Of a stretch of DNA of 64,000 bases, positions 61,224 to 64,000 are shown piece after piece. The DNA is from Candidatus Hydrogenedentota bacterium. Lineage in GTDB: Bacteria > Hydrogenedentota > Hydrogenedentia > Hydrogenedentales > SLHB01. Within the stretch, counting starts at the first letter, position 1. The number at the start of each line of letters is the position of its first letter. The stretch covers positions 448,001-512,000 of the forward strand of contig CAXXTH010000017.1 in assembly GCA_963668025.2 (NCBI GenBank), read 5' to 3'. Under the pieces are notes generated by a model, which was not told the origin of the DNA, did not search any database, and saw only the letters and a program-made list of their open reading frames with translations. Position numbers and translations under genes: made by a program.

Positions 61224-62165
61224 ATGAACAAGATACTAACAGCCATCCTCTGCGCGTCGCTGGCATTGCCAGCTATCGCTGCGGATCGGATCGAGGTGAA
61301 ACCCGACGCCAGCGTCGCCGGTCCGGTGTTGCGGCTGGGCGATGTGGCCACGATCTCGGGCGAAGACATCGATCTCCTCAAGGATATCGAAATCGGCCCC
61401 GCCGCGTTGCCCGGGCAGACCCGCGTGGTGCAAGCCTCGCTGATCAAATCAAGCATCGAGCGGCAGGGATTTGACCTCTCGAGCCTCGAAATCAACGGCG
61501 CGGAGAATGTCCGCGCTACCACGTCGCATCTTGCCCTTGACAAGGCCGGCCTTGAAAAAGACCTCCGGCATTTTATCGAACTGGAAATGCCTTGGGAAGC
61601 CGCCAATACGACTGTCGATGTTGTTGCCCCCAATTTCGAAGTCGTGTTGCCAGAAGGCCAAGTGACGATTGACTGGCGGTGCAGCCCCACTTACCGGTAT
61701 CTAGGAACAGGCTCCTTTCGAGGGGATGTGAAAGTGAACGGCGAGGTCCAGCGCTCTGTGCTATGCCGGGCTGATATCGAAGCGTATGGCGAAGTGGTGG
61801 TCGCCGCCACGGACATTCCCCGGGGCGCGATTTTCTCCGAGAAAAATCTCACCATCGAGCCGCGCGCCCTTTCGACCGTGCCTCGAAACACCATCGAAGA
61901 TCCGGGCGAGCTGCTGGGGCAGGCCGCGAAACGCACTCTATTTCTGGGACAGATTCTCACCACTTCGCATGCCTGTTCGCGCACCCTCATCAAACGCAAC
62001 CAAATCGTATCCGTCGAAGCGCAGACAGACGCTTTGCGCGTGCATATGCAAGCGAAAGCCCTCGCGGATGGCGGAGAAGGGGATGCGATTCCTTGCCAGA
62101 ATACCTCGTCGAAACAAGAATTCGTCGGAATCATCCAGCCGGGCGGAACCGTCCAGGTGAAATAG
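61224..62165 (+). CDS. flgA: Flagellar P-ring formation chaperone FlgA
   Basis: Signal peptide, SAF domain VVVAATDIPRG, KALADG..GD.I; synteny. Confidence 0.88.
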   Translation: MNKILTAILCASLALPAIAADRIEVKPDASVAGPVLRLGDVATISGEDIDLLKDIEIGPAALPGQTRVVQASLIKSSIERQGFDLSSLEINGAENVRATTSHLALDKAGLEKDLRHFIELEMPWEAANTTVDVVAPNFEVVLPEGQVTIDWRCSPTYRYLGTGSFRGDVKVNGEVQRSVLCRADIEAYGEVVVAATDIPRGAIFSEKNLTIEPRALSTVPRNTIEDPGELLGQAAKRTLFLGQILTTSHACSRTLIKRNQIVSVEAQTDALRVHMQAKALADGGEGDAIPCQNTSSKQEFVGIIQPGGTVQVK

Positions 62166-62177
62166 GAGCGTAATCAA

Positions 62178-62831
62178 ATGAATACGCCGATCTTGAAGAT
62201 ATCCATAAACATGGCGGCAGCGTATTTCGTGGTTTTTGGCATGCCAAACGCCTACGCAGACAGCCTGTTCAATGCCCATTCCGAGAAAAAAGGCTCGCTT
62301 GTCTCGAATAATGTCAAAGAATTCCAGGAAGGCGACATTATTAACGTGCTGGTTCGCGAGACGATCGATGCGTCGACCCAAGCGAACACCAACACCACGA
62401 AGAAGTCGAATATCGAGTCCCAGGCCGATGCGGCGGATAATGGATTTCTAGTGGCGGAAAAACCAGGCTTGAACCTGCTGCCTCAAGAAATGCTCCCGAA
62501 TTGGAAGATAGAGTCAGATAAAGAACAGAGCACTAAAGGTAATACCGCTCGTAAAAATACGCTGGTCATGACCCTCGCCTGCCAGGTGAAAAAGGTGTAT
62601 GACAACGGCAATATTGATATCGAAGGCGAAAAAACAGTCACGGTGAACCGGGAAGACTGCAAAATGTTCGTATCGGGGCGGGTGCGGTCCAAGGATGTAA
62701 CGCCTGCAAACACGGTGGACTCAACATTAATCTTGAACGCCCAGGTGAAGCTCGACGGGAAAGGCCCCCTCTGGAATAACCAGCGGCGCGGATGGATCAC
62801 CAAATTCCTGGATTGGTTTTCGCCTTACTGA
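62178..62831 (+). CDS. flgH: Flagellar L-ring protein FlgH
   Basis: GDIINVLVRE, NGNIDIEGEK, SGRVRSKDV, GWITKF. Confidence 0.9.
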   Translation: MNTPILKISINMAAAYFVVFGMPNAYADSLFNAHSEKKGSLVSNNVKEFQEGDIINVLVRETIDASTQANTNTTKKSNIESQADAADNGFLVAEKPGLNLLPQEMLPNWKIESDKEQSTKGNTARKNTLVMTLACQVKKVYDNGNIDIEGEKTVTVNREDCKMFVSGRVRSKDVTPANTVDSTLILNAQVKLDGKGPLWNNQRRGWITKFLDWFSPY

Positions 62832-62839
62832 AAAATGGA

Positions 62840-62983
62840 ACCGCGAATGGACGCAAATGAACGCGGATACGTGGAGAGTACATCGGATGGTTCGCCCAAA
62901 TAGACATAGCAGGCCTCTTGAGAACGGAATGCCGCTGGCTATTCATTCGGCAGTATTCGCGTCCATTTGCGTCCATTCGCGGT
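62840..62983. repeat. Palindromic unit, copy 1 (flanks GxxExxY gene)
   Basis: 31-bp terminal inverted repeat ACCGCGAATGGACGCAAATGAACGCGGATAC / GTATTCGCGTCCATTTGCGTCCATTCGCGGT. Confidence 0.92.
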
Positions 62984-63039
62984 CAAAAATCGTTAAGCCA
63001 AGCATTTTGAATGGCGCCCAGTTTGAGGGATGATCTCAA

Positions 63040-63432
63040 ATGGACGCAGATAAAATAGAGAGCCAACTCGTATATCAAGTTGTCGGATGCGCCATGGAAG
63101 TGCTGAATGGCCTTGGGCATGGCTTACGTGAGAAAACATATGAACGGGCCTTATGCATAGAACTTGAGCTTGCAGGAATTCCGTTTTCCCAGCAACAAAT
63201 GCACAAAGTGTTATATAAAGGTAGGCATATCGATGATTATATTCCCGATTTGGAAGTGCCAGAGCGGCTCATCATCGAGACAAAAACCATAGATAAAATA
63301 ACTAATGAAGAAATTGGCCAGGTATTAAACTATCTTAAGGTCACAGGAATACAAGCTGGACTGATATTAAATTTCGCTCATCCCAAACTTGAATGGAAAA
63401 AGATGGTTCATACCCATTTGAGCAGTAATTGA
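63040..63432 (+). CDS. GxxExxY family PD-(D/E)xK nuclease-like protein
   Basis: LGHGLREKTYERAL, PDLEV...IIETK, QVLNYLK, GLILNF. Confidence 0.93.
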   Translation: MDADKIESQLVYQVVGCAMEVLNGLGHGLREKTYERALCIELELAGIPFSQQQMHKVLYKGRHIDDYIPDLEVPERLIIETKTIDKITNEEIGQVLNYLKVTGIQAGLILNFAHPKLEWKKMVHTHLSSN

Positions 63433-63441
63433 TGGATAAAG

Positions 63442-63575
63442 ACCGCAAATGAACGCGGATACGTGGAGAGTACATAGGATGGTTCGCCCAAATAGACATA
63501 ACAGGCCTCTTGAGAACCGAATGCCGCAGGCTATTCATTCAGAATTATTCGCGTCCATTCGCGTCTATTCGCGGT
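63442..63575. repeat. Palindromic unit, copy 2 (direct repeat of 62840-62983)
   Basis: Near-identical interior GTGGAGAGTACAT.GGATGGTTCGCCCAAATAGACATA.CAGGCCTCTTGAGAAC; left arm one 10-mer shorter. Confidence 0.92.
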
Positions 63576-63603
63576 TCCCAAAAGCATATAAGGATGCAGT
63601 CAT

Positions 63604-64000
63604 ATGAAACAGATTCAGCAGAACGGAATTGCCCGCCGCGTGGCGCTCGGGAGCTTGGCGTTCTTGCTGGCGCTGGCGCTGTCGGAAAATGCGTGCGCGG
63701 CGCGCATCATGGATTTATGCGATGTCCAGGGCGCGCGGGGCAATGACCTCAAAGGCATAGGCCTCGTGGTGGGCCTTTCGGCCACGGGCGACAAAAGCGC
63801 GGAAGCGGTCCGCGCGCAACAGCGCTTGTTAAGCCGTCTGGATGTGGAAGTGGCCAGCTATGACAATCTCAAATCGGATAATTGCGCCGTAGTCCTGGTG
63901 ACCGGCACATTTCCCGCCTTTGCAAAAGAAGGCACACAGATAGACGTGCAAATTAGCTCCTTGTTTGATTGCAAGAGCCTCGAGGGAGGCATCTTGCTCG
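63604..64000 (+). CDS. flgI: Flagellar P-ring protein FlgI, partial
   Basis: Hand translation: signal peptide then ARIMDLCDVQGARGNDLKGIGLVVGLSATGD ... SLEGG; runs off the window. Confidence 0.92.
   Translation, partial: MKQIQQNGIARRVALGSLAFLLALALSENACAARIMDLCDVQGARGNDLKGIGLVVGLSATGDKSAEAVRAQQRLLSRLDVEVASYDNLKSDNCAVVLVTGTFPAFAKEGTQIDVQISSLFDCKSLEGGILL

Follow-up and report, generated by a model that had tools for sequence, protein, structure and literature searches.

Periodic arms around GxxExxY genes: a candidate REPIN/RAYT-like cassette family viewed from a flagellar locus

Why should flgH and flgI, which code for the flagellar L-ring and P-ring, be held apart by a small gene set between two hairpin-like repeats? 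This question is raised by a stretch of 64,000 nucleotides (nt) from the genome of a Candidatus Hydrogenedentota bacterium (GenBank assembly GCA_963668025.2, contig CAXXTH010000017.1, positions 448,001 to 512,000 of the forward strand; hereafter the window), in which a gene of the GxxExxY family lies between the two flagellar genes and which an original prediction, made from the letters alone, had read as holding a compact element of a nuclease and its cognate hairpins. Following up this reading, we find that GxxExxY genes in many phyla are bracketed by inverted repeats of about 30 nt, here called arms, whose sequence type follows the protein clade, and that these armed genes are accompanied by deletion derivatives and by families of gene-less hairpins that turn over at their sites. 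We give slightly more credence than doubt to the explanation that they form a family of selfish cassettes in which the nuclease would act on the arms, resembling the systems of repetitive extragenic palindromes (REPs), REP doublets forming hairpins (REPINs) and REP-associated tyrosine transposases (RAYTs) while relying on a different class of enzyme. A literature search, with subscription journals and supplementary files outside its reach, returned no description of GxxExxY genes with such arms, and hairpin-armed GxxExxY cassettes are apparently a widespread family that has so far gone undescribed.

Arms bracketing GxxExxY genes

We collected 56 public loci carrying relatives of the window's protein, four of which were dropped as fragments or for their short flanks, and scored the remaining 52 for a bracketing inverted repeat, that is, one joining the region of the start codon with the region just past the stop. 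Such a repeat was found at 38 of the 52 loci at a score of at least 16, compared with none of 95 control windows moved by +/-800 nt within the same loci (Fisher p 8e-24); at a score of at least 14, which again none of the 95 controls reaches, the number rises to 41 of 52. A second sample comprised 67 intact genes from at least 40 relatives, based on 60 genes picked from about 200 matches (stop-free and with enough flank) together with nine automatic loci, and left out L115 and L116, which have in-frame stops, and two loci with too-short flanks. Here, 53 of the 67 genes were bracketed, versus 2 of 126 controls (p 1e-31), and direct repeats between the two flanks were seen at 25 of the 67 genes versus 5 of the 126 controls. 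The flanks of homologs, to which the original prediction had pointed as the place where cognate palindromes ought to recur, are enriched for them in both samples.

Pooled over the two samples (n = 94), the arms have a median length of 33 nt, and 44 of them are internally periodic (27 with a period of 10 nt, 15 of 9 nt and 2 of 8 nt), compared with 66 of 2,000 random 30-mers. Their orientation relative to the gene is consistent: the upstream, or left (L), arm is purine-rich in 70 of the 94 cases and pyrimidine-rich in 2, typically starts 8 nt before the ATG and codes for the first residues of the protein, such as MNANGRE. Relatives display two architectures, one with the gene inside the arms and another with the gene between two hairpins, the L arm of the downstream one lying at the stop codon. 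Judging by the loci aligned here, the commoner arrangement outside this genome is usually the first, in which the ~30-nt arms form the terminal inverted repeats (TIRs) of a single hairpin with the gene inside. Of the element as it was originally conceived, the recurrent and specific pairing of nuclease gene and hairpin stands, whereas the layout of a gene between two hairpins is not the commonest one elsewhere. We also noted that, in many arm types, most subunits contain either an ATG (CGCGAATGGA, CGCAGATGA, CACGGATGAA, ACAGGATGA) or a Shine-Dalgarno-like GGAG or AAGG. At periods of 8 or 10 nt, neither of them divisible by three, one ATG after another falls into a different frame, and the arm may also act as a portable start for translation.

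Arms of the CGCRAATGRA type, like those in the window, accompany about 20 of the 23 homologs with at least 48% identity to the window's protein. Homologs below 48% have other arm types (for example CACTGA, CACGGAG and CGCAGAG), with the exception of L043, a protein of 35% identity with similar arms of the CGCAGATG type. Comparison of arm and protein sequences shows that the arm type follows the protein clade, both among these cross-phylum homologs and among the GxxExxY loci of the window's own genome, as had been expected of arms that co-vary with their protein.

In that 6.1-Mb genome, 15 matches to GxxExxY profiles fall at about 12 loci, which were sorted by eye from their translations into eight paralog groups, each with its own arm type (CGCGAAT, ACAAGAT, CGCAAAGG, CACAAAG, CACGAAATA, CACAGAG, CAGGATG and CGCGAAGG). 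Searches with type-specific arm cores identified cognate arms on both sides at 10 of the 12 loci and on one side at 2. The association is also seen in a list made blind to arm type, in which strong hairpins (arms of at least 22 nt with at least 19 matches; 373 in the genome) lie within 200 nt on both sides of 6 of 13 gene pieces, compared with 5 of 20,000 random intervals (p 9e-18). These hairpins were called by an ungapped 19-of-22 scan, which replaced stricter detectors based on chains of exact 9-mers (67 hairpins) or on a 15-of-18 periodicity (15 hairpins). In this genome the rule is the second architecture, in which hairpins stand on both sides of the gene and the downstream L arm adjoins the stop codon; that arm begins 9-17 nt past the stop at 9 of the 12 loci.

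The protein encoded in the window, 130 amino acids (aa) in length, is a member of the family defined by TIGR04256 (GxxExxY) and PF13366 (PDDEXK_3), matching the first at E 7.4e-37 (126.3 bits against a cut-off of 35, positions 2-116 of 116) and the second at E 1.3e-33 (116.3 bits against a cut-off of 22). Its motifs G28-x-x-E31-x-x-Y34, D70 and E80-x-K82 are intact in alignments; across 56 sequences E31, Y34 and D70 never vary, and conservation of G28 and K82 is at least 90%. An AlphaFold model built on 56 sequences (mean predicted local distance difference test, pLDDT, 91.9; predicted template modelling score, pTM, 0.85) adopts a PD-(D/E)xK fold, and from fold and motifs the protein looks like an active nuclease. 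A search of PDB sequences with a profile of six paralogs gave no match at E <= 1. In the entry that it devotes to the GxxExxY family, a 2012 survey of the PD-(D/E)xK superfamily gives the function as 'Unknown'. The closest homologs of the window's protein (52-68% identity) come from Desulfobacterota, Verrucomicrobiota, Kiritimatiellia, Acidobacteria, Neomarinimicrobiota and WOR-3; 50,697 phage records held no match, and 7 of 72,556 plasmid records did, all at less than 60% identity and all typed as non-mobilizable.

Gene-less hairpins, dispersed arms and turnover

Armed GxxExxY genes are found together with derivatives that have lost internal sequence. Internally deleted copies with the same arms lie beside full copies at L011, L013, L115, L118 and L119, and two relatives possess tandem arrays of the form L-gene-R-spacer-L-remnant-R (where R is the right arm), in which full and internally deleted genes alternate and spacers of 14-16 nt part the cassettes (L106, G013:C12:28500-32000; L105, G043:C95:20000-21500). 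Hairpin, gene, second hairpin and remnant likewise follow one another at L116. Arms are also found around loops that hold no such gene. Mini hairpins of the window's arm type with unrelated loops occur in two relatives (L101-L103 and L111, in G039 and G044), and the window's genome has 31 gene-less hairpins of another arm type, type a, 25 of them with a loop whose sequence matches that of another (median identity 82%). The flanks of these type-a minis themselves belong to larger composite repeats, and inspection of the outer flanks of 74 typed periodic-arm hairpins revealed no target-site duplications (TSDs).

Comparison of orthologous sites within one genus shows turnover of such minis. Where G039 has the mini hairpin L102, with CGCGAAT arms, in the intergenic region between the end of an ABC-transporter-like gene and the next gene, the same site in the same-genus genome G057 is occupied by a periodic repeat of four GGGACATAA units (L187, G057:C1, about 672358-672640). 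The flanks of L101 in G039 map to two different G057 contigs. As far as comparison of genomes can tell, the mobility of the cassette family is well supported.

In the window's genome the ~30-nt arm of the window, type f, is itself dispersed, occurring at 56 sites by a strict pattern and at 97 when up to two mismatches are allowed. Repetition is widespread here, 10.9% of the genome's bases lying in 13-mers present at least 8 times. One composite repeat recurs at dozens of sites (for example C3:145860-145990 and C17:734780-734900) and consists of GCGGCATGGCCGCAACCAAA, a T-run, a lone type-f arm and ...CCCGTGGCATGGGCGTCTCGCCCATG; in this genome the window's arm type is mostly a module of this GCGGCATGGCCGCAACCAAA...CCCGTGGCATGGGCGTCTCGCCCATG mosaic and not part of a hairpin.

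The same genome possesses two RAYT-like genes for single-tyrosine (Y1) transposases (for example C17:774393-774734 and C10:313783-314124), each between long palindromes of its own, of which one begins CTCTCCTTAGCACC... and the other CAGCCCAGGGCC..., and which are found elsewhere as gene-less copies too. These are bona fide REP/RAYT systems standing beside the GxxExxY/arm system. An element like IS200/IS605 with a 163-codon Y1 transposase is present in at least nine near-identical copies (for example C8:11818-12174, C21:34756-35112 and C24:22238-22594); its right end reads ...GTGGTTTTTTAC, and two of the copies lie directly against periodic-arm hairpins. In front of many lone arms there likewise stands TTTTTTAC. 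No Y1 (PF01797) gene in the genome has periodic arms. REP/RAYT, cited from the start as the precedent for a nuclease flanked by its cognate palindromes, is the right analogy, though the true Y1/RAYT genes of this genome bear other repeats.

The cassette between flgH and flgI

Among relatives at family and order level, flgH lies next to flgI at 23 of 24 loci, the 24th stopping at a contig end; no same-genus genome is among these relatives, and the best FlgH identity is 59%. The gap between the high-scoring segment pairs (HSPs) of the two genes is 70-204 nt in the relatives, most of it being the FlgI signal peptide, versus 776 nt here. This comparison shows that the flgH-flgI locus carries an insertion, as had been proposed, and that it is the AT-richer gene with intact motifs that splits the pair. 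The 772 nt between flgH and flgI contain a single real open reading frame (ORF), the GxxExxY gene, which is lower in guanine plus cytosine (40.5%) than flgH (49.8%), flgA and flgI (58%) and the genome (55.4%). The left arm L1 begins 8 nt after the flgH stop codon, and the flgI ribosome-binding region (63579-63603) is undisturbed.

Table 1. Features of the insertion and its limits; positions are those of the window.
Feature	Positions	Strand	Remarks
flgH (flagellar L-ring)	62178..62831	+	PF02107, E 4.5e-40; upstream limit of the insertion
L1, left arm of unit 1	62840..62870	+	purine-rich; subunits CGCGAATGGA / CGCAAATGAA / CGCGGATAC; repeat search, motif scan
Loop of unit 1	62871..62952		82 nt; in the genome only here and in unit 2
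R1, right arm of unit 1	62953..62983	+	94% complementary to L1
Spacer ahead of the gene	62984..63039	+	Shine-Dalgarno-like GAGGGA before the ATG; no sigma-70-like promoter predicted
L*, decayed own left arm	63030..63054	+	about 1.5 subunits; overlaps the start codon; 78-81% complementary to R1
GxxExxY gene, PD-(D/E)xK fold	63040..63432	+	130 aa; D70/E80/K82 intact; 40.5% GC
L2, left arm of unit 2	63444..63463	+	two subunits left; starts 11 nt past the stop codon
Loop of unit 2	63464..63545		direct-repeat copy of the unit 1 loop (93% over 132 nt)
R2, right arm of unit 2	63546..63578	+	three subunits; best partner L1
flgI (flagellar P-ring), 5' part	63604..64000	+	PF02119, E 1.2e-29; downstream limit of the insertion

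On either side of the gene stands one copy of a direct repeat (62852-62983 and 63444-63575; 132 nt, 93% identity), whose unit measures 132-144 nt and whose arms consist of three ~10-nt subunits of the form CGCRAATGRA (Table 1). The direct repeats, the build of the arms from ~10-nt tandem subunits and the loss of one subunit from the second copy had all been noticed in the original prediction, and sequence and motif scan bear them out. That each unit forms a hairpin holds for unit 1, with its 31-nt arms, which folds as single-stranded DNA (ssDNA) at -40.5 kcal/mol (z -6.5; none of 200 shuffles as good), and does not hold for unit 2, which because its left arm lacks one subunit folds on its own no better than shuffled sequence (-15.7 kcal/mol, z 0.13; matched by 109 of 200 shuffles). 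The best inverted pair joins L1 with R2 (62837-62869 and 63546-63578, 33 nt, 88%), and these two therefore act as the outer TIR of the whole 740-nt cassette.

Alignment with nine close homologs, whose intact L arm occupies the equivalent position, was used to identify L* as what is left of the gene's own left arm. L2 occupies the site at which close homologs have their R arm, and the gene's own right arm is missing. Since its own arms are thus decayed on the left and missing on the right, the flanking units look like gene-less minis, or like a long duplication of one, and the window copy is best read as a composite of a mini hairpin, a gene with a decayed arm of its own and a further mini hairpin. 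No GxxExxY remnant was detected in the loop of unit 1 (62871-62952). As the original prediction stated, the cassette comes without transposase, integrase or clear TSD: it contains no other ORF longer than 65 aa, and no TSD was seen at its ends. Several ORFs of 52-65 codons are translated hairpin units (62797-62976 and 63341-63538 on the minus strand, 62857-63033 and 63449-63607 on the plus strand; one reads ...IRVHLRPFAV) and are likely to be sources of spurious 'hypothetical protein' calls.

A simple consensus scan of positions 62100-63900 predicted no sigma-70-like promoter, found terminator-like sites on the minus strand only, and found no plus-strand T-run after the window's hairpins. With the same orientation as the flagellar genes and neither a promoter nor a terminator of its own predicted, the cassette is probably transcribed by read-through from the flagellar operon.

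Explanations and known systems

In the explanation that we favour, the basic element would be a GxxExxY gene within two inverted arms of ~30 bp, each made of about three phased subunits of 8-10 bp. Upstream of the gene the arm would be rich in purines on the coding strand and would often provide the start codon, and arm sequences would differ from one protein clade to the next. The nuclease would recognise the phased subunits of its cognate arms and nick or cut there, and host repair or recombination would then copy or join arm-bounded DNA into other arm-bearing or intergenic sites. Movement of this kind would be homing-like or recombination-like, leaving no short target duplication and needing neither transposase nor integrase. 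Internal deletion would yield gene-less hairpins akin to REPINs or to MITEs (miniature inverted-repeat transposable elements), which would spread as families of their own, while lone arms would persist. On the simplest account of the window copy, a module of L arm and gene would have entered at a resident mini hairpin, which would have ended up on both sides of it through a long target duplication or a single (Campbell-type) crossover within the hairpin; the subunit of L2 would have been lost afterwards, with the outer L1 and R2 staying the best inverted pair. A bolder version, which we find plausible while leaning against it, would give GxxExxY nucleases the specific task of mobilising a new class of hairpin/TIR elements that spans phyla. 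Each ~30-bp arm would then consist of three helically phased binding subunits of 8-10 bp sharing a C-R-C-N-R-A skeleton, whose variable positions would spell out a clade-specific code by which protein recognises DNA; spread through host repair triggered by the nuclease, with no transposase involved, would have given rise to dense landscapes of hairpin repeats in many environmental bacteria.

Several observations weigh against the favoured explanation. No bracketing repeat above threshold was found for 14 of the 52 and 14 of the 67 homologs. The full unit has two copies in the genome, both at the window's gene, so that the solo copies expected by the original prediction are missing and only the ~30-nt arm is dispersed; most type-f arms are, moreover, lone arms that follow a T-run amid other short repeats. 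In the contigs of four public runs (X1-X4) that contain this stretch, which break off at the repeated unit, the filled arrangement is the only one present; neither an empty site, nor a circle junction, nor the solo palindrome that recombination between the units was predicted to leave was seen in them, although contigs cannot show absence. One contig joint (62869>62954), with a side of 30 nt and unknown letters between, probably stems from another arm pair elsewhere in the genome. Structural matches of the GxxExxY model are confined to generic PD-(D/E)xK enzymes, namely Cas4 SSO0001 (best in Foldseek, E 1.1e-3; VIA Z 8.0), R.SwaI (best VIA Z, 8.1) and Hjc (Z 6.8), and indicate no mechanism. 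At L113 a GxxExxY cassette occupies the same locus in G039 and G057, with genes 67% identical and flanks 78-80% identical, which suggests that the cassette has long persisted there by vertical descent and has not moved often. Furthermore, plain co-inheritance of linked DNA could by itself make arms track protein clades. Co-occurrence across 60 relatives, to be read with care since its identity thresholds were set after viewing the tables and related genomes are not independent, speaks for the favoured explanation in one test and was weak in another: window-like arms are present in 6 of 7 genomes with a near-full-length homolog of at least 48% identity versus 9 of 53 others (p 6e-4), the seventh genome's homolog having a diverged arm type (CACAGATG), whereas type-a arms are present in 3 of 7 genomes with a homolog of at least 61% identity versus 11 of 53 others (p 0.20), the four misses (L125, L127, L130 and L143) carrying diverged arm variants beyond the reach of BLAST.

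This weak type-a signal is also what might be expected if the nuclease were cargo and the hairpins an independent REP- or MITE-like class, moved by Y1 transposases in trans, by host recombination or by slippage, with GxxExxY riding along more often than any other gene, perhaps as an addiction, defence or restriction-like nuclease through which cassettes are helped to persist. Y1 transposases are plentiful in the genome, several arm types have no cognate gene in it (the assembly is 94% complete), and in relatives arms enclose unrelated loops (L101-L103, L111) and an insert of ~730 nt that is not GxxExxY (L095). Unrelated ORFs in this genome also lie between direct copies of periodic-arm hairpins, which means that the hairpins can flank cargo other than the nuclease. 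We nevertheless think it unlikely that the nuclease is a passenger: GxxExxY genes are bracketed at 38 of 52 and 53 of 67 loci from many phyla and are the sole protein family recurring inside arms among the loci examined, the Y1 genes have different palindromes of their own, and the five genomes richest in type-f arms (32, 25, 22, 19 and 13 matches) all encode a cognate homolog of at least 48% identity. A mere local accident, in which a ~592-bp tandem duplication around some ordinary gene gained by horizontal transfer took in a palindrome by chance, there being no system, would fit the confinement of the full unit to this locus, yet it is scarcely credible given the same pairing at both sets of independent loci, the cognate arms of eight types at 12 of 12 GxxExxY loci (10 of them both-sided) and the dispersal of the arm at 56-97 sites. 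The bracketed ORFs just mentioned comprise 357 codons (C10:210842-212083; weak, sub-threshold Nuc_deoxyrib_tr match), 349 codons (C10:445280-446480), 216 codons (C14:10646-11945; membrane-like) and 238 codons (C17:1125923-1126916), the last three without a Pfam match, and may be composite cargo like that of Pack-MITEs.

Two further alternatives give the arms other work to do. They may function in RNA, as transcript stems like those of the intervening sequences (IVS) of 23S rRNA, from which RNase III would excise or insulate the ORF, mobility being a separate matter. IVS with an S23p ORF are described in passages of PMC4990558 as a small ORF with complementary ends and a long stem, regarded as selfish, and GxxExxY genes resemble them in lying inside a long stem at most loci; the window's cassette is likewise inserted in a transcribed host unit, in sense orientation and without a predicted promoter or plus-strand terminator, and the consistent orientation of the purine-rich arm would also fit. 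However, in 43 elements (1,613 paired positions, 255 mismatches between L and R), mismatches of the sense strand that are compatible with G.U are no more frequent than A.C mismatches (63 versus 73, p 0.44), so that nothing indicates one-stranded selection for an RNA stem, and RNA processing of one ORF would leave the dispersed lone arms and gene-less hairpin families unexplained. Unlike IVS, moreover, the cassette lies between flgH and flgI, encodes GxxExxY rather than S23p/TIGR02436, has periodic arms and drew no Rfam family match over positions 62000-64000 in E-value mode (only flpD, at a chance-level E of 0.35). On this balance a role of the arms in RNA appears improbable. An integron cassette is a promoterless ORF closely followed by an imperfect palindrome of about 60-140 nt (attC), with the core consensus R'' RYYYAAC ... 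R' GTTRRRY. The window's unit could be such a site, recombined as ssDNA by a tyrosine recombinase from elsewhere into an array of one cassette: a promoterless ORF is followed by an imperfect palindrome of 130-145 nt and bracketed by direct copies of it, the close downstream L arm recurs at 9 of 12 loci, and hairpin-ORF-hairpin arrays are found, as in the relative with L116. This is nonetheless very improbable, since the ends of the unit (CGCGGTCAAAA and CGCGGTTCCCA) lack the attC core motifs, the neighbours are flgA, flgH and flgI, cassettes are scattered singly rather than arrayed by an integrase (no search aimed at intI was made) and most genomes have the gene enclosed by the arms, not placed next to a hairpin.

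Returning to the favoured reading of a selfish cassette family with a nuclease that may move or act on the arms, its nearest likeness is to REP/REPIN-RAYT, which parts of three reports (PMC3116915, PMC3337134, 10.1101/2022.05.22.493013) describe as a gene with cognate palindromes that also occur as non-autonomous hairpin doublets. In both, a small single gene stands between cognate palindromes, further copies of which are scattered over intergenic DNA, each gene lineage has its own repeat population, and vertical persistence is possible. Membership in REPIN/RAYT fails because the GxxExxY enzyme, of ~130 aa, is of the PD-(D/E)xK type and not, as in RAYT (PF01797), a Y1 transposase of the HUH class. 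GxxExxY arms are, unlike REP stems, arrays of three phased 8-10-nt subunits, and the GxxExxY gene is often inside the hairpin, with the arm often giving its start codon. RAYTs are typically single-copy, whereas GxxExxY genes reach several to twelve copies and up to eight arm types per genome.

Restriction-modification (RM) genes offer another parallel, since passages of PMC2853133 (Furuta, Abe and Kobayashi 2010) describe them as flanked by imperfect inverted repeats or by direct repeats of more than 30 bp that duplicate the target. As the portions of that source on mobile RM genes would have it, a nuclease gene of PD-(D/E)xK type can move without transposase or integrase, and the window's 132-nt direct repeat would fit the pattern of long target duplication (PMC2853133). 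In contrast to RM genes, the insert has no methyltransferase partner, its one ORF longer than 65 aa being GxxExxY, and the repeats are members of dispersed, clade-specific families with periodic arms rather than unique target DNA. With MITEs and their parent insertion sequences (IS) the cassettes share TIRs, internally deleted copies beside full ones and families of minis; they differ from DDE-type IS and MITEs in having no DDE or other known transposase, no short TSD that could be seen and arms that are internally periodic. Homing endonuclease genes of PD-(D/E)xK type resemble them in that a small nuclease is the sole function of the insert and in that spread by cleavage and host repair is possible, and I-Bth0305I is among the weak fold matches of the GxxExxY model (rank 46). 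Unlike homing endonucleases, GxxExxY has no intron or intein context and a generic fold match, and the targets proposed for it are repeats at scattered places instead of a single allelic site.

The link to clade-specific arms gives a testable role to GxxExxY (PF13366), a large family of which no function is known, and a GxxExxY-arm system would account for a share of the densely packed intergenic hairpin repeats in genomes like this one. Should the nucleases indeed drive the arms, a different enzyme class would here underlie a second REPIN/RAYT-like system, and nature would offer a set of small nucleases whose DNA recognition is modular and phased. Recognising the cassettes, which lie inside operons and give rise to spurious short ORFs, would also improve annotation.

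Two minor observations concern other genes of this genome. Four-helix-bundle (TIGR02436) genes were considered as a second cargo family and set aside, the genome having one clear gene of this kind, split over two frames (C18:379081-379400, minus strand). An ORF of Gly/Met repeats of the GMGGGM type (C17:1585740-1586170) appeared in the repeat analysis as a DNA direct repeat.

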